Notes: generated by a model not told the origin, from the sequence alone. A stretch of 64,000 bases of DNA from Escherichia coli (GCF_013315695.1 NZ_CP054353.1); one strand, 5' to 3'. Shown: positions 14,853-48,738, numbered from the stretch's first letter. Program-made: numbers and translations.

Positions 14853-15025
14853 AAAGTTCTTTTGCGCTGCATTGCTGGCGTAAATGTCAGCAATGCAGCA
14901 TTTCCTCACGATTCTTCTTTGACGATCGCACTTTTTGCTCGTTATGATGGCGTCGCTAGCCTCAGTAAATCCTTACTCCGGCGGTGCGCAACCCGTGCGC
15001 GTGAACCACTATCTGAATGCTCATC

Positions 15026-31766: not shown

Positions 31767-32459
31767 TTAATTGTGTCGCTTAAGGGTCTGTGACTGACTG
31801 ATTAAGACCTTTCCAAAGACCATAAACCGGTGTTCGTTTTCGCTGGTAATTCCCCATTCGCGGTAAATCTGATTATCAGAAATTACCAGCAGTTTATCAG
31901 GTATCATTTGCAGTCGTTTGACGTAAATTTTATCATCAAAACCAAATACATATATACCATCCCCATCAAACTGATTGATACTGATATCAACGAAGATGAG
32001 ATCTCCTGGCTCAATGGTTGGACACATACTGTCCCCACGAACGTTGATAACTTTAATGTGATTTGCTGGTCGTCCACCAAACATCGATACAGCATTATCA
32101 GTTCTGTATTCAATGGCATGAATCACATCAATGACATCACCGCCCTGGATAAGGCCATTTCCCGCACTGGCACTGACATCCAGCATTTCAATACGGAATA
32201 CATCCTTCACCTGCGTAACATCCTCACTAATACTGTTTTTACATACAGTATTACTTTTGAGGTCTGAGGTAAAGAGATCAGCAATATCAACACCTAAGCT
32301 CCTGGCAATATTACTCAGGGCTTGTTCAGTGAATTGTTTCTGCTTACCTGTTTCGAGGCGCGAGATATTCGCCGCATCCACTCCTATTGCTTCAGCGAGA
32401 TCGGCGATTTTCATGTTCTTCGCCTGGCGAAGTTGTCTGACTCGATTTCCTATGTTCAT
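31767..32459 (-). CDS. cI: CI-type prophage repressor (HTH_XRE + S24 LexA-like peptidase), 230 aa
   Basis: N-terminal HTH (NMKIADLAEAIGVDAANISRLETGKQ). Possible Ala-Gly site (SASAGNG). Catalytic Ser (GDSMCPTI) and Lys (VKRL). Divergent from the cro-like gene. Resembles e14 YmfK/CohE as I remember it. Confidence 0.85.
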   Translation of the reverse strand: MNIGNRVRQLRQAKNMKIADLAEAIGVDAANISRLETGKQKQFTEQALSNIARSLGVDIADLFTSDLKSNTVCKNSISEDVTQVKDVFRIEMLDVSASAGNGLIQGGDVIDVIHAIEYRTDNAVSMFGGRPANHIKVINVRGDSMCPTIEPGDLIFVDISINQFDGDGIYVFGFDDKIYVKRLQMIPDKLLVISDNQIYREWGITSENEHRFMVFGKVLISQSQTLKRHN

Positions 32460-32817: not shown

Positions 32818-33367
32818 GCATCATTGGAAAGTGGAAAAACAGCCTGAGTGGTACGTGAAAGCTGTCAGAAAAACTATCGCGGCGTTGCCGGGGGGTTACG
32901 CTGAAGCTGCTGAGTGGCTGGATGTAACAGAGAACGCATTATTCAACCGCCTTCGTGCAGATGGCGATCAGATTTTCCCGCTGGGATGGGCAATGGTTTT
33001 ACAGCGTGCGGCTGGCACTCACTACATTGCGGATGCTGTCGCACAGTCTGCTGGTGGGGTGTTCGTATCGCTTCCTGAAATTGAGGCAGTAGAGAACGCC
33101 GATATAAACCAGCGCCTGCTGGAAGTCATTGAACAGATCGGCAGTTATTCCAGACAGATTCGTTCAGCAATCGAAGACGGTGTAGTGGAACCGCATGAGA
33201 AGACAGCAATTAACGACGAACTGTATCTTTCAATTTCGAAGCTCCAGGAGCATGCAGCACTGGTCTACAAAATCTTCTGCGCTCCAGAAAAGAGTAACGC
33301 CCGCGAGTGTGCAGCTCCGGGCGTCGTGGCGTCGATTGCTTCTGGTTGTGGAGAAACTAACGCATGA
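32810..33367 (+). CDS. YmfL-family putative regulatory protein (185 aa, GTG start)
   Basis: ...ALPGGYAEAAEWLDVTENALFNRLRADGDQIFPLGWAMVLQRAAGTHYIADAVA...INDELYLSISKLQEHAALVYKIF...CAAPGVVASIASGCGETNA closely matches e14 YmfL as I remember it. Confidence 0.75.
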   Translation: MGKHHWKVEKQPEWYVKAVRKTIAALPGGYAEAAEWLDVTENALFNRLRADGDQIFPLGWAMVLQRAAGTHYIADAVAQSAGGVFVSLPEIEAVENADINQRLLEVIEQIGSYSRQIRSAIEDGVVEPHEKTAINDELYLSISKLQEHAALVYKIFCAPEKSNARECAAPGVVASIASGCGETNA

Positions 33368-33692
33368 ATAGTTTAACGGCAAATAACCGTTTGTCGCAAC
33401 AGCTGGTGGTCAGCGTCGCTGAACACCTGTTGTTACGGCATGAATGCAGATTACCAAATCACCTGGCTGTAAGTAACCACAGAGAACTTTACCTGACTGT
33501 GGGGGGCGAGTTGTGCAGGAACTTAACCGCTGGTTTCGTGACGGAAGAGGGCTTTATGTCCATGTTATTCGTTGGGAGCCAGAAACACAGCGCGTTATCT
33601 ATCTTCGCAAAGACTACCCGCATGAGTGCTTTAGTCCTTTGTGGAAATTCAGGCGTGATTTTGTTGAGTGTGAAGGACCACCAGCATATTGA
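33364..33692 (+). pseudogene. ymfM-position gene split by a frameshift at a G6 run (or a 59-aa GTG-initiated ORF 33513-33692)
   Basis: ATG 33364 overlaps the upstream stop (ATGA). After 48 codons the run GGGGGG (33501-33506) is reached. With one extra G the frame continues RVVQELNRWFRDGRGLYVHVIRWEPETQRVIYLRKDYPHECFSPLWKFRRDFVECEGPPAY* (109 aa in total). That continuation looks protein-like (DUF4222-like) and is not in the ORF track. Confidence 0.4.
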
Positions 33693-33764
33693 TTCTGCAA
33701 TTCCGGGACGTTACACTGTTCAGGCACCTTATAAAGCGGGTGCCGGGATTGGCGTCCTGAAATT
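33678..33764 (+). repeat. 87-bp block, copy A (identical to 34541-34627); start of rha leader A
   Basis: Direct comparison of the two stretches gives 87/87 identity. Contains hairpin GGCACC-TTATAAAGCG-GGTGCC and site a1 ATTGGCGT. Confidence 0.9.
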
Positions 33765-33778
33765 CGCACATGCGCATA

Positions 33779-33800
33779 ACCGCGCTTCAGCGGTTTTTTT
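33779..33800 (+). terminator. hairpin plus T-run inside leader A
   Basis: ACCGC-GCTTCA-GCGGT followed by TTTTTT. Positional equivalent in copy B has a different stem sequence. Confidence 0.5.
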
Positions 33801-33827
33801 GCGCACGTTTCCTCACATCCAAATTAT

Positions 33828-33906
33828 GGTGGGGCGTGCAGGGGCATCGAAAGATGCGCCGGGGTCATGTGCGACCGGTTACGCCAACCCTGTACGTCTC
33901 ACCACC
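33828..33906 (+). ncRNA. c4-type antisense RNA candidate, copy A (ends approximate)
   Basis: Closing helix 33833-33843/33888-33898. GAAA-tetraloop hairpin 33844-33857. b' TCATGTGCGA (33865-33874) is complementary to 33944-33953 over the rha SD. a' ACGCCAA (33881-33887) is complementary to ATTGGCGT at 33748 and 33913. Helices co-vary with copy B. Confidence 0.55.
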
Positions 33907-33963
33907 TCTGTGATTGGCGTCCCATGTGGTGAGTTTTCAAAATTCGCACATGAGGATGTCACT

Positions 33964-34509
33964 ATGGCAACCACCCCTACCCAAACTCACCCTAAAATTG
34001 ATGTTATCCATGGGAAGGCTGTTACCTCTTCTTTGGCCGTTGCCGAATATTTCTGCAAGCAGCACAAAAACGTTATTCAAAAAATCCAGACGCTTGAGTG
34101 CTCTGTTGAATTCACTGAGCTGAATTTTCAGCCCAGTGATTACACCGATTGCACAGGCCGCAAACTCCCTTGTTACCAAATCACCCGCGACGGTTTTGCG
34201 TTTCTTGCCATGGGCTTCACGGGGAAACGTGCTGCCCGGTTCAAAGAGGCATACATCAATGCCTTTAACCAGATGGAGAAACAGCTTTCAAATCCCTCTG
34301 TACTGAGCGACGTTGCACATAACGCCAGCGTTCTCTATTCCTACATTTCATCAATTCATCAGGTCTGGCTGCAGCAGCTTTATCCTATGTTGGCAAAAGC
34401 CGAATCTCCGCTGGCTGTTAGCTTGTATGACTATATTAATGATGCTTCGGCGCTGGCCTGCCTCATAAATTTGTCGCTGAATCCTTCAGAGGTAAGGGGG
34501 CGTAAATGA
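33964..34509 (+). CDS. Rha-family phage regulatory protein, copy A (181 aa)
   Basis: Start taken at ATG 33964 (MATTPTQTHPKIDVIHGKAVTSSLAVAEYFCKQHKNVIQKI...) behind GAGGA. The Phage_pRha motif sits at the N-terminus as usual, with ...YQITRDGFAFLAMGFTGKRAARFKEAYINAFNQME. The 381-aa ORF in the track extends upstream through the structured leader. Confidence 0.75.
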   Translation: MATTPTQTHPKIDVIHGKAVTSSLAVAEYFCKQHKNVIQKIQTLECSVEFTELNFQPSDYTDCTGRKLPCYQITRDGFAFLAMGFTGKRAARFKEAYINAFNQMEKQLSNPSVLSDVAHNASVLYSYISSIHQVWLQQLYPMLAKAESPLAVSLYDYINDASALACLINLSLNPSEVRGRK

Positions 34510-34540
34510 TCCGGAATATTTTCAAACTGTTTACCAATCG

Positions 34541-34627
34541 CCACCAGCATATTGATTCTGCAATTCCGGGACGTTACACTGTTCAGGCACCTTATAAAGC
34601 GGGTGCCGGGATTGGCGTCCTGAAATT
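34541..34627 (+). repeat. 87-bp block, copy B (identical to 33678-33764); start of rha leader B
   Basis: 87/87 identity to copy A. It is preceded by the first 11 codons (MIRNIFKLFTN) of a duplicate of the 35384 gene start. Confidence 0.9.
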
Positions 34628-34643
34628 GTCAACGGCGATGTAT

Positions 34644-34663
34644 GACGCGCCAGCGTCTTTTTT
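34644..34663 (+). terminator. hairpin plus T-run inside leader B
   Basis: GACGC-GCCA-GCGTC followed by TTTTTT. Confidence 0.5.
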
Positions 34664-34693
34664 ATCGTCCGCATTTGCTCACATCCAGATTAT

Positions 34694-34772
34694 GGTGGGC
34701 TGGGCGGGGGCACCGAAAGGTGCGCCGGTCTCCGTTGACGCCGGTTACGCCAACCCCGTCCAGTTCACCACC
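34694..34772 (+). ncRNA. c4-type antisense RNA candidate, copy B (ends approximate)
   Basis: Closing helix 34700-34709/34754-34763. GCACC-GAAA-GGTGC hairpin 34710-34723. b' CTCCGTTGAC (34730-34739) is complementary to GTCAACGGAG (34811-34820) inside the rha SD. a' ACGCCAA is at 34747-34753. Confidence 0.55.
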
Positions 34773-34829
34773 AGTGAAATTGGCGTTTCCGGTGGTGGAA
34801 GTTTTTCACTGTCAACGGAGGCTGCCATC

Positions 34830-35387
34830 ATGGCTACGATCCCAGCCCTCACTCAACCTGAAATCACCATTGACAACGGCCAGGCCGTTACCACTTCTTT
34901 GGCTGTTGCCAACTTCTTCTCCAAGCGTCACGACGATGTGCTGAAAAAGATCCGCACTCTGGATTGTTCCCCTGAGTTTTGTGCCCGCAATTTTGCGGAG
35001 ACATCGATTTCGGTAAATCAACCGAACGGTGGTACACGCAAGCTCCTTTGCTATCAAATCACACGAGACGGTTTTGCGTTTCTTGCTATGGGTTTCACGG
35101 GTAAACGTGCTGCCCGGTTCAAAGAGGCATACATCAATGCCTTTAACCAGATGGAAAAACTGCTTTCAAAGCCATCCACGCTGAGCGATGCCGCAGATAA
35201 CGCCAGCGTGCTTTACTCCCACCTGTCGGTAATCCACAAGGTCTGGCTGCAGCAGCTTTATCCCATGTTGGCAAAAGCCGAATCCCCGCTGGCTGTAAGT
35301 CTGTATGACCGCATCAACGACGCGGCGCTACTGGCCAGTCTCATAAATTTGTCGCTGAACCCTTCAGAGGTAAGGGGGCGTAAATGA
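34830..35387 (+). CDS. Rha-family phage regulatory protein, copy B (185 aa)
   Basis: Start taken at ATG 34830 (MATIPALTQPEITIDNGQAVTTSLAVANFFSKRHDDVLKKI...) behind GGAGG. The C-terminal two thirds are nearly identical to copy A. Confidence 0.75.
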   Translation: MATIPALTQPEITIDNGQAVTTSLAVANFFSKRHDDVLKKIRTLDCSPEFCARNFAETSISVNQPNGGTRKLLCYQITRDGFAFLAMGFTGKRAARFKEAYINAFNQMEKLLSKPSTLSDAADNASVLYSHLSVIHKVWLQQLYPMLAKAESPLAVSLYDRINDAALLASLINLSLNPSEVRGRK

Positions 35388-35608
35388 TCCGGAATATTTT
35401 CAAACGGTTTACCAATCATACTTTCCGTTGTCCTCGTCCGGGTCAGTGGTACACCACGCCTGCAGGGCATGTTCTACGTGTTAGCCTGGTTGACCGTGAA
35501 TGTCAGAAGGTGATTTGTGAACCGCTGGGCCGTAATTACCGCGTCAGTATGCCGCTTATAGCCTTTCGCTCCGGAAAAAACATGAAGCATCTCGGAGGTG
35601 CTGCATGA
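35384..35608 (+). CDS. hypothetical small protein (74 aa), possibly DUF4222-like
   Basis: MIRNIFKRFTNHTFRCPRPGQWYTTPAGHVLRVSLVDRECQKVICEPLGRNYRVSMPLIAF... ATGA overlaps with both neighbours. Confidence 0.5.
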   Translation: MIRNIFKRFTNHTFRCPRPGQWYTTPAGHVLRVSLVDRECQKVICEPLGRNYRVSMPLIAFRSGKNMKHLGGAA

Positions 35609-42980: not shown

Positions 42981-43433
42981 AAATGTCTCACAATTCAGAC
43001 GGTTGACAGTTGTCTGTTTTGCGGGGAGTTTGTTAAAAGAAACTGGCATGGTGAATCCCCCTGTGCGGAGGGGCAATCAGCAACTGGTGTTTTGTCACCG
43101 ACCCTTATCCTTTCTGTGCGGGTTCAGGTGCTGATACTGAACTCACCGGGAGGCACCCGGCATCATGTGCATGATGATACAGATACGCGGCTTTAGCCCC
43201 TCTCCGGAGGGGCTTTCTTGTGGGCAAAAAAAAGCCCGAGTGGGTTCGGGCAACAGCATGAGATATACATTTTTATAATCGAATGGATTTTAACCAGAAT
43301 TCATAAGGCTGCGCAACTGCGCGGTCTTTTTCGAATTGCGGGCTGTCGTCTCTCTTCTGCCATTGTCCTGTAACTTCCGGACTTCAGCCCGCTCCTTATT
43401 TTACTCACAATATTATCCCGGCCGGGAGGATTC

Positions 43434-48101: not shown

Positions 48102-48216
48102 ACACCGAACCTGCCCCTTTGGAATGGGCCTTTGAGGATACCAGTTAGTGCTGGCGAGCCTCGGTGGGCTGGTTTCCTATGCGGCAAAGGTTCATTTCAA
48201 ATGGTAGGTAAACGTT

Positions 48217-48738
48217 ATGAATATCGTGCCACTTAATTACAAAGGTGAAATTGTCAGTTTCAACACTGATGGTTGGATCAACGTCACAGGTGTTGCTGAG
48301 AGATTTGGAAAACGCATTGATAACTGGATGCGTTTGGCAGAAACGCTTGAATACGTTCGTGCTTTAGACGAAGCGTTGACCGGGAAAGAATCTCAAATTT
48401 TACATCCCTCACAATCGAGGTATGTAAAAACCAGCAAGGCACGAAAGGACAGGGGTGGTGGTACGTGGCTACATCCAAAACTTTCAGTTGCATTTGCCCG
48501 TTGGTGTGATGCTCGTTTTGCTGTGTGGTGCGACCTGCACATTGATAGTCTGCTTCGCGGTGAACTGACTGAGCAGCAGAAATATGAGCAAGCATGTCGC
48601 ATTCGCGATGACCGGAAATCAAAAGCCAGCAATGGGGCAAGAGAGATGGCTCGCTGGCGATGGGATAAGCCGGTTATTGAAGCAAATGTTGAGTACTGGC
48701 GCGAGCAACTGCAGTTGACTCTCGATATCGCGTGCTGA
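48217..48738 (+). CDS. KilA-N domain protein (173 aa)
   Basis: ...FNTDGWINVTGVAERFGKRIDNWMRLAETLEYVRAL...GGGTWLHPKLSVAFARWCDARFAVWCDLHI is the KilA-N pattern. Confidence 0.7.
   Translation: MNIVPLNYKGEIVSFNTDGWINVTGVAERFGKRIDNWMRLAETLEYVRALDEALTGKESQILHPSQSRYVKTSKARKDRGGGTWLHPKLSVAFARWCDARFAVWCDLHIDSLLRGELTEQQKYEQACRIRDDRKSKASNGAREMARWRWDKPVIEANVEYWREQLQLTLDIAC

Follow-up and report, generated by a model that had tools for sequence, protein, structure and literature searches.

The immI region of bacteriophages P1 and P7, an operon of the order c4-icd-ant that was reportedly described by Citron and Schuster in 1990, is one of the two described systems with which the locus reported here aligns. 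In the curated annotation of P1 (NC_005856) its sites are a1 (48255-61), b1 (48269-76), the c4 RNA itself (48343-48419), a2 (48423-29) and b2 (48452-59), and P1 and P7 differ by 2 nucleotides (nt) at each of a1, b1, b', a', a2 and b2, in keeping with the compensatory changes mentioned in a preliminary description of the present locus that was made from its sequence. RNAs of this kind (C4 and c4-a1b1) occur in many proteobacterial prophages and carry tetraloops on helix P2; the 3' strand of their P1 helix overlaps a terminator-like hairpin, and a1b1 has been proposed to compete with a2b2 (Weinberg et al., 2010). Here we analyse the leaders of two consecutive rha genes in a 64,000-nt stretch of Escherichia coli DNA (GCF_013315695.1, NZ_CP054353.1; the whole stretch is referred to as the window), and conclude that they are very probably two tandem cassettes of the P1 immI / Gifsy-1 isrK type, each preceding its rha gene in an E. 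coli lambdoid prophage.

The second system is that of prophage Gifsy-1, where the isrK promoter drives transcription of anrP (Hershko-Shalev et al., 2016, PMC4825925) and where IsrK supplied in trans raises the translation of orf45 and anrP more than 100-fold (PMC4825925). Pairing of G28/G31 of IsrK with C162/C159 was proven by compensatory mutants, and orf45, translated from nt 107 onwards, shares an AUGA overlap with anrP; this frame is conserved in nucleotides and not in amino acids, and must be translated (PMC4825925). The Gifsy-1 system was likened by its authors to P4 seqA/CI and not to P1 c4 (PMC4825925), and a 2025 review still treats IsrK and c4 as separate systems. The novelty of our locus is limited because its elements belong to catalogued RNA families (Rfam C4, c4-a1b1 and isrK) with an experimentally studied close homologue, and the known principle is unchanged. 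What is new is a rare heterospecific natural tandem, an orf45-like frame fused in-frame to rha, a stop-free frame from the AUG of C4 that extends across the family, and the public coding-sequence and protein-family annotation that lies over these RNAs.

Layout of the two rha leaders

Both modules run in the same order, from a promoter through an IsrK-like RNA (a1, b1 and a terminator) and a C4 RNA (b' and a') to an a2 hairpin, a b2 site at the Shine-Dalgarno (SD) sequence and rha, and the pair lies in the prophage between cII(ymfL)/DUF4222 and the replication genes. Their elements, predicted RNAs included, are as follows (aa, amino acids; bp, base pairs).

33689-33717, plus strand: putative module A promoter, by homology (-35 TTGATT at 33689-33694, 17-nt spacer, -10 TACACT at 33712-33717)
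34552-34580, plus strand: putative module B promoter (-35 at 34552-34557, -10 at 34575-34580), same sequence as in A, within the 87-bp identical block
33724-33800, plus strand: IsrK-like small RNA A (Rfam isrK RF01394, 62.3 bits, model 1-77)
34587-34663, plus strand: IsrK-like small RNA B (Rfam isrK RF01394, 62.2 bits, model 1-77)
33822-33909, plus strand: C4 antisense RNA A (Rfam RF01695, 75.1 bits, model 1-87, all pairs canonical)
34688-34775, plus strand: C4 antisense RNA B (Rfam RF01695, 81.4 bits, model 1-87, all pairs canonical)
33900-33956, plus strand: target region A, with the a2 hairpin, a U-run and b2 over the SD (exact complementarity, homologous to P1 a2/b2)
34766-34821, plus strand: target region B, with the a2 hairpin and b2 within the SD (exact complementarity)
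33964-34509, plus strand: rhaA, 181 aa (227 aa from the C4 AUG at 33826), Pfam Phage_pRha PF09669 (E=1e-32)
34830-35387, plus strand: rhaB, 185 aa (231 aa from the C4 AUG at 34692), Pfam Phage_pRha PF09669 (E=4e-27)

The preliminary description had recognised a c4-type antisense RNA in each leader and proposed a search with the Rfam C4 model. As run, that search returned full-length matches in both copies, well above the gathering score of 45 bits for this model of length 87. The order a1 b1 - RNA (b' a') - a2 b2/SD, also put forward there, is that of the curated P1 immI annotation, and the alignment of the four leaders compared (window A, window B, Gifsy-1 and P1) extends from the -35 hexamer as far as the start codon. 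In Gifsy-1 (NC_010392) matches to isrK (79.3 bits) and C4 (69 bits) precede STM2616 (anrP), and in P1 c4-a1b1 and C4 (68.8 bits) precede icd. By position, G28/G31 of Gifsy-1 correspond to a1 and C162/C159 to a', and nt 107, the start of orf45, is the conserved AUG of C4. An 87-bp block is identical between the copies (33678-33764 and 34541-34627), as had been described and as both a repeat finder and the pairwise leader alignment confirm; beyond it the two leaders drop to 75-87% identity. Three elements had gone unnamed before: the identity of the a1-b1 part as isrK, the putative promoter in the identical block and the conserved AUG of C4.

The upstream RNA is filed under isrK, a family of Hfq-binding RNAs whose gathering score is 50 bits. 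The c4-a1b1 model (RF03163), for which the Gifsy-1 and P1 elements reach the gathering score of 46.7, gave 21.6 bits (E=0.009) at 33711-33763 and at 34574-34626; its two hairpins are present in the window elements, and the isrK model fits their sequence better. In that model a1 occupies the second hairpin loop, b1 falls in the unpaired stretch beyond it, and an intrinsic terminator forms the third hairpin. IsrK-like RNA A accordingly has two hairpins, with a1 ATTGGCGT (33748-33755) in the loop of the second and b1 TCGCACATG (33764-33772) single-stranded ahead of the terminator, and in RNA B a1 stands at 34611-34618 and b1 GTCAACGG at 34628-34635. The internal hairpin with T-run of the earlier account turns out to be the terminator of the isrK model; a terminator scan independently found intrinsic-terminator-like sites, each with a U-run, at 33778-33795 (A) and 34644-34657 (B). 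The putative promoter hexamers align column for column with those of the curated P1c4/P51b promoter (-35 at 48195-48200, -10 at 48218-48223), and also with the isrK promoter region of Gifsy-1.

Both C4 copies adopt the fold of the model, with a P1 closing helix, a P2 hairpin, a P3 hairpin whose loop holds b' and a single-stranded a', and all 27 model pairs are canonical in each. Between A and B five of these pairs changed on both sides, one went from GC to GU and none was broken, and nine of the 11 unpaired differences fall in the b' loop. The co-varying GAAA-tetraloop hairpin that had been pointed out is P2 of the model, with GAAA in both copies. The closing helix was likewise correctly seen to be kept with compensatory changes and is P1 of Rfam C4, but it measures 17 bp and not the 10-11 bp first given. 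Over 50 distinct C4 copies, 99.6% of the cells of the Rfam structure are paired (33-51% in slid controls) and 12 of the 27 pairs show double changes; P3 is invariant in this set owing to the way the loci were selected. Whole-leader folding against shuffles gave z = -4.9 and -4.7, and in the minimum-free-energy fold of leader B the b' segment pairs with b2/SD in cis. Transferring the ends of the curated P1/P7 c4 by alignment predicts mature C4 RNAs at 33828-33906 (A, 79 nt) and 34694-34772 (B). The conserved AUG lies at the 5' end of each C4 match (33826-33828 and 34692-34694; model positions 5-7).

Both downstream proteins carry the Phage_pRha domain above its gathering score. They share 71% identity (BLASTP), with a divergent N-terminal half and a near-identical C-terminal half. 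RhaA matches PHROG 821 and 518 and the anti-repressor profiles 373 and 63, which agrees with the earlier placing of Rha in an antirepressor-like class. AnrP of Gifsy-1 matches profiles 373 and 63 too, in the same profile region, and BLASTP found no similarity between Rha and AnrP, so that the antirepressor link is drawn through the shared PHROG/Ant profile matches only.

Pairing sites and their specificity

In module A the stem CACCAC (33900-33905) / GTGGTG (33926-33931) closes a loop that holds a2 ATTGGCGT (33913-33920) and is followed by a T-run, the hairpin before the SD that had been noticed earlier; CACCAC also forms the 3' side of the closing helix of C4. The a2 ATTGGCGT of module B (34779-34786) also lies in an a2 hairpin. 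The segment a' ACGCCAA (33881-33887 in A, 34747-34753 in B, in the 3' junction of C4 A) complements a1 and a2 in both copies at the positions first reported, matching a2 over 7-8 nt. The b sites are different in the two modules. In A, b' TCATGTGCGA (33865-33874, in the P3 loop) is the exact 10-nt reverse complement of b2 TCGCACATGA (33944-33953), which overlaps the SD GAGGA (33952-33956); in B, b' CTCCGTTGAC (34730-34739) is that of b2 GTCAACGGAG (34811-34820), inside the SD GGAGG (34817-34821). The b1 sites are copies of b2, 9 nt long in A and 8-9 nt in B, and the three b sites have changed together between the copies, just as proposed. The b2/SD leads straight into rha, the SD being followed by 7-8 nt and the ATG. 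Neither a further perfect match to either b2 nor another trans target of b' beyond b1 and b2 was found in the 64-kb window.

Collections of viral sequences and of genomes, surveyed with the conserved core of C4, yielded approximately 210 loci with 71-72 distinct b' loops. An exact b2 complement of at least 8 nt was present at a fixed offset of about 53 nt past GCCAACCC for 41 of 71 distinct loops, and a b1 complement upstream, at one of two fixed offsets, for 31 of 71. When each loop was compared with the flanks of other loci, these rates were 1.0% for b2 and 1.2% for b1, and the b'/b2 complementarity is thus far beyond chance. About 25 of the 90 genome-collection matches were rejected as chance hits in GC-rich, non-proteobacterial genomes with neither a b2 nor a b1 complement; such scaffold matches make up most of the loops that lack a complement, and were later removed by demanding ATGG at the 5' end of C4. 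In nearly all loci surveyed b2 overlaps the SD.

Local duplex energies separate the two modules clearly. Cognate duplexes of b' with b1 or b2 range from -16.6 to -23.8 kcal/mol and cross duplexes from -4.5 to -10.2 kcal/mol, with b'/b2 at -16.6 kcal/mol in A and -23.8 kcal/mol (14 bp) in B. The a' duplexes (-11.9 kcal/mol with a1, -10.3 kcal/mol with a2) are the same for any combination of modules. Modules A and B are therefore orthogonal at b and common at a, in line with the different specificities earlier ascribed to the two RNAs. Given a shared promoter and shared a sites with unrelated b sites, each C4/IsrK pair should mainly address its own rha.

The genes behind the leader vary across loci and include Rha (181-187 aa), Icd-like (62-81 aa), Bro-N/Ant-like (approximately 230 aa) and ORF6N (AnrP) proteins, as well as other small ones. 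An N-terminus MAT[IVT]P[AT] is common to otherwise unrelated downstream genes of the lambdoid class (Rha, Icd-like, 77-aa and 120-aa; loci L002-L211 of the survey), and for this reason the boundary of the mobile cassette seems to lie some 10 codons into the gene. An ATG at 33950, inside b2 of module A, and its equivalents at loci L010 and L090 were picked as starts by a script and rejected as artefacts.

The frame through C4 and competing readings

Homology to P1 and Gifsy-1, together with this complementarity, suggests how the cassettes would be expressed and in which direction they would act. Each would be transcribed from its own sigma-70 promoter, and the intrinsic terminator would stop most transcripts to leave an IsrK-like RNA of about 77 nt that presents a1 in the loop of a hairpin and b1 unpaired. 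Read-through RNA would continue through C4, with its 17-bp closing helix, tetraloop hairpin, b' hairpin and single-stranded a', into an rha mRNA whose a2 loop and b2/SD copy a1 and b1. Pairing of a'/b' with a2/b2 would block the ribosome-binding site of rha, either in cis, within the uncleaved leader, or in trans, once RNase P has released C4 as in P1. The IsrK-like RNA, carrying the same two sites, would compete for C4 and free the ribosome-binding site, which would amount to activation as by IsrK of Gifsy-1. Rha would then be the antirepressor-like regulator under this control. The C4 AUG would open an orf45-like frame, and processing by RNase P, reportedly the c4 processing enzyme according to Hartmann et al. 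in 1995, would remove that AUG. In P1 and P7 the curated mature 5' end of c4 is in fact the G of the conserved AUG (48341-48343 in P1, 253-255 in P7), which makes RNase P processing and orf45-type initiation mutually exclusive on any one transcript.

The C4 AUGs are in frame with the starts of rhaA and rhaB, with no stop codon between them, and translation through C4 would therefore yield an N-terminally extended Rha. Among 92 distinct leaders whose loop has 12 nt, this frame crosses C4 as far as b2 without a stop in 91, compared to 46 and 18 for the other two frames; 33 distinct, independently evolved loops of this length contain 22 stop triplets, none of them in this frame (P of about 6e-5 naively, about 1e-4 if restricted to variable positions). 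The C4-AUG frame is thus kept free of stops by selection, which extends to the family what was found for orf45 of Gifsy-1, a frame conserved in its nucleotides and in need of translation. How the frame ends was tabulated over 103 distinct leaders: it is fused in-frame to the downstream gene in 55, among them the two in the window, where AUG and ATG are 138 nt apart, ends ahead of the start codon in 19, enters the next gene out of frame in another 19, ends within C4 as in P1 in six and ends at an AUGA overlap as in Gifsy-1 in four. A depletion of stops upstream of the C4 AUG (27 versus 106 and 115) was dropped as evidence for long open reading frames (ORFs), because stops conserved in the other frames (e.g. 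CCTGAAATT) inflate the count.

Public annotation covers both leaders with long ORFs of 381 and 293 aa, labelled 'Rha family' proteins by PGAP, and the first of them overlies the following feature.

33513-33692, plus strand: DUF4222 gene, 59 aa (Pfam DUF4222, E=9.4e-14; PHROG 1343, 1.9e-36)

This gene lies in another frame under the first third of the 381-aa ORF, and its stop codon falls within the -35 hexamer of module A. In 24 distinct homologues the substitutions peak at the third codon position of the DUF4222 frame (0.153 versus 0.060 and 0.049), a peak that is absent from the frame of the 381-aa ORF; DUF4222 is a real coding frame upstream of module A. If the 381-aa and 293-aa 'Ash-Rha' fusions were nevertheless translated, by ATGA coupling in the early right operon, the RNA features would be secondary. 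Speaking for this are the PGAP calls, the matches of the translated leader to Pfam Phage_ASH PF10554 (E=1.9e-11 and 1.2e-17) and to PHROG 821 and 995, the ATGA overlaps along the operon and the open frame itself. The leader, tested by entropy per codon position, shows no coding periodicity, with 0.44/0.50/0.56 from the C4 AUG to b2 against 0.65/0.49/0.97 in the first 80 rha codons; moreover, the b' loop spans 8 to 15 nt between loci, the frame relation to the downstream gene shifts, and the N-termini of the two ORFs are unrelated. We regard translation of the full-length fusions as very improbable, and the annotated ORFs are largely artefacts. The preliminary description had set against itself the possibility that these frames are translated with substitutions under codon constraints: the substitutions track helices and not codons, but one frame, that through C4, is indeed held open. 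Positions 1-94 of Phage_ASH and segments of PHROG 821, 995 and 3960 coincide exactly with the translated IsrK-C4-a2-b2 leader (33712-33963 and 34575-34829). Phage_ASH and these PHROG families seem in part to derive from over-long ORFs that extend over RNA genes. The stop/start overlaps (ATGA at 33364, 34506, 35384 and 35605) join ymfL, both long ORFs, a 74-aa ORF and an O-like replication gene, and the cassettes appear to sit in an early right operon with translational coupling, whose transcription must in addition get past the two IsrK terminators.

Several results weigh against a two-RNA cassette that acts at the rha ribosome-binding site. The models proposed for the homologues disagree, since P1 is described as trans repression by processed c4 and Gifsy-1 as trans activation by IsrK on orf45, and neither of their intervening frames, icd or a separate orf45, stands between b2 and rha in the window. 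The perfect b2 duplex of module A extends over no more than the first 2 nt of the SD. Cofolding whole C4 with whole target or IsrK gains just 0 to -2.2 kcal/mol and does not discriminate between modules, so that loop-loop kinetics or the help of a protein (Hfq) would be needed. Finally, a generic sigma-70 scan of 33300-35700 called no promoter (the module A site, with 8/12 matches, is sub-threshold), for which reason the promoters are assigned solely by homology.

A rival scheme is confined to the Gifsy-1 type: the IsrK-like RNA would be the sole trans-acting RNA and the C4 segment a structured 5' part of an orf45-rha mRNA, inactive while a1b1 pairs with a'b' in cis; IsrK would open the leader and ribosomes would start at the C4 AUG (33826 or 34692) and run into Rha. 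It draws on direct experiments on the closest homologue (PMC4825925) and on the conserved AUG frame, held open and fused to the downstream gene in over half of the leaders tabulated, both window copies among them. Against it stands the canonical SD-ATG placed exactly at b2, with b2 co-varying with b' in more than 40 specificities, which an upstream AUG alone does not explain; in addition, no SD is recognisable ahead of the C4 AUG, a stable species from the C4 segment (STnc1160) exists in Salmonella, and P1 c4 is a proven processed trans repressor from which the RNase P cut removes the AUG. We therefore hold this scheme to be possible but distinctly less probable than the one with two active RNAs. 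Control might instead fall mainly on transcription, as for P4 CI, with C4 pairing or the a2 hairpin and its U-run chiefly governing termination before rha. CACCAC belongs both to the C4 closing helix, as its 3' strand, and to the a2 hairpin ahead of the U-run, and P1 c4 is said, from work by Biere et al. in 1992, to repress ant transcription indirectly via Rho. The same terminator overlap led Weinberg et al. (2010) to raise a cis-regulatory role, and the IsrK study draws a parallel with termination control by P4 SeqA/CI (PMC4825925). The a2 hairpin is weak, however, with a stem of 6-7 bp, a loop of 18-20 nt and a U-run broken by AG or GAAG, and was not called by the terminator scan; the position of b2 over the SD in nearly all loci argues for translational control as the primary step. 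Attenuation as the chief mechanism is thus unlikely, and we favour the cassette reading, in which C4 would block b2/SD, the IsrK-like RNA would titrate C4 or remodel the leader, and b would confer specificity.

Tandem arrangement and comparison with known systems

The boundary between the two modules has a structure of its own.

34506-34548, plus strand: tandem junction, where a 35-nt copy of the beginning of the 74-aa ORF downstream abuts the repeat unit at its start

The copied segment (ATGATCCGGAATATTTTCAAAC...) stands behind rhaA, and at the join the sequence runs from ...ACCAATCG into CCACCAGC... Of 5,426 complete E. coli genomes, five have this exact A-B junction, which is also present in a single viral contig (L081). 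The prophage is carried by E. coli 582, N1, N10, 23CRST038 and CEA601S. A second type of tandem, C-A, in which a module of specificity GCATACGG precedes module A, was found in CEA212U, N53 and N62 (the last taken from the search table), and its junction, ...TTTACCAATCG followed by CCACCAGCATATTGATT..., is identical (L214, 2710-2760; L216, 2607-2657), implying exchange of cassette cores around a shared junction. The b specificities differ between the units of both tandem types. Module A occurs as the first unit in A-B and as the second in C-A. Single modules exist as well, with the A leader in phage Lys8385Vzw (99.7% identity) and the B loop elsewhere. Viral contig L035 carries two C4 cores on the same strand (4113-4128 and 7372-7387), non-adjacent and 3.2 kb apart. 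Beyond its tandem, the genome of E. coli 582 (NZ_CP120568.1) matches the junction/leader query a third time, and probably contains at least one further cassette, in another prophage, that would share the a sites.

Some other observations concern the remainder of the window. The prophage has a CI-like repressor at 31767-32459. In the late region of the prophage, 42692-43281 holds three tRNA genes, STnc100 (131.7 bits) and the anti-sRNA AsxR (63 bits, minus strand), an arrangement known from Stx-type lambdoid phages; the host strain is not labelled as Shiga toxin-producing E. coli. A match to the Rfam Peptidase-S11 RNA (72.8 bits) at 14941-15021 on the plus strand belongs to the host part and is unrelated to the cassettes.

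Taken together, we tentatively propose that the b1/b'/b2 triplets, of which at least 40 co-vary on a single conserved scaffold, may form an address code, with two-channel tandems and a bifunctional leader. If true, the code would let each cassette, or each of several prophages in one host, control its own antirepressor-like gene free of cross-talk, with the shared a site and promoter as a common input, and the A-B and C-A arrays would be natural two-channel versions that arose by cassette exchange around a fixed junction. The leader would combine two RNAs with an obligatorily open frame giving long and short Rha isoforms, and the RNase P cut inside the AUG would decide between an RNA regulator and a translated mRNA. 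A single alignment unites the P1 c4 (repression) and Gifsy-1 IsrK (activation) literatures on the same three-site cassette. In public records the two small-RNA genes of each cassette are hidden under over-long 'Rha family' coding sequences, and a correction would touch thousands of enterobacterial prophage annotations. A tandem that shares a and differs only at b is a clean natural test of antisense specificity and of the separate contributions of the a and b sites, and the in-frame AUG points to possible protein isoforms made by translation across a structured regulatory RNA.

Among the known systems, Gifsy-1 shares with the window an enterobacterial lambdoid prophage setting and the succession of isrK and C4 in equal order and spacing before an antirepressor-like gene. 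The sites a1 ATTGGCGT and a' ACGCCAA are identical in the two, and the C4 AUG is the first AUG of orf45. It differs in its b sites and in a b' loop of 8 nt versus 12 nt in the window; the stop of orf45 overlaps the anrP start (AUGA), whereas the window frame is stop-free and fused to rha. Its downstream gene encodes an ORF6N protein (AnrP) and not Rha, and it is a single copy adjoining the Q antiterminator, compared with a tandem between cII and the replication genes. P1 has in common with the window the a1 b1 - c4 (b' a') - a2 b2/SD design, the C4 fold and the promoter hexamers, but a small icd ORF separates b2 from ant in P1, whereas in the window b2/SD stands directly before rha. Its a sites read TTGACAG against TTGGCGT, its frame from the C4 AUG stops within the b' loop where that of the window stays open, its promoter is under a C1 operator (a P1 feature), and its a1b1 element matches Rfam c4-a1b1 and not isrK, to which the window element belongs. 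In P1/P7, as in the window, specificity shifts through concerted changes of the sites, yet P1 and P7 differ by 2 nt per a and b site, whereas A and B keep a in common and differ at eight of 10 b positions.

The satellite P4 (seqA - CI RNA - seqC) resembles the window, by description, in a small RNA processed from a leader with complementary sites up- and downstream, and IsrK/STnc1160 have been called structural homologues of the P4 immunity RNAs (PMC4825925); the outcome in P4 is premature termination of transcription of the replication operon and not an effect on a ribosome-binding site. The APSE phages of Hamiltonella, finally, carry isrK and c4 upstream of a BRO-N gene in their published annotation, and their a' and b' are reported to match other sites too (PMC7313666); they resemble the window in this arrangement and differ from it in host, in phage type and in having a single copy.

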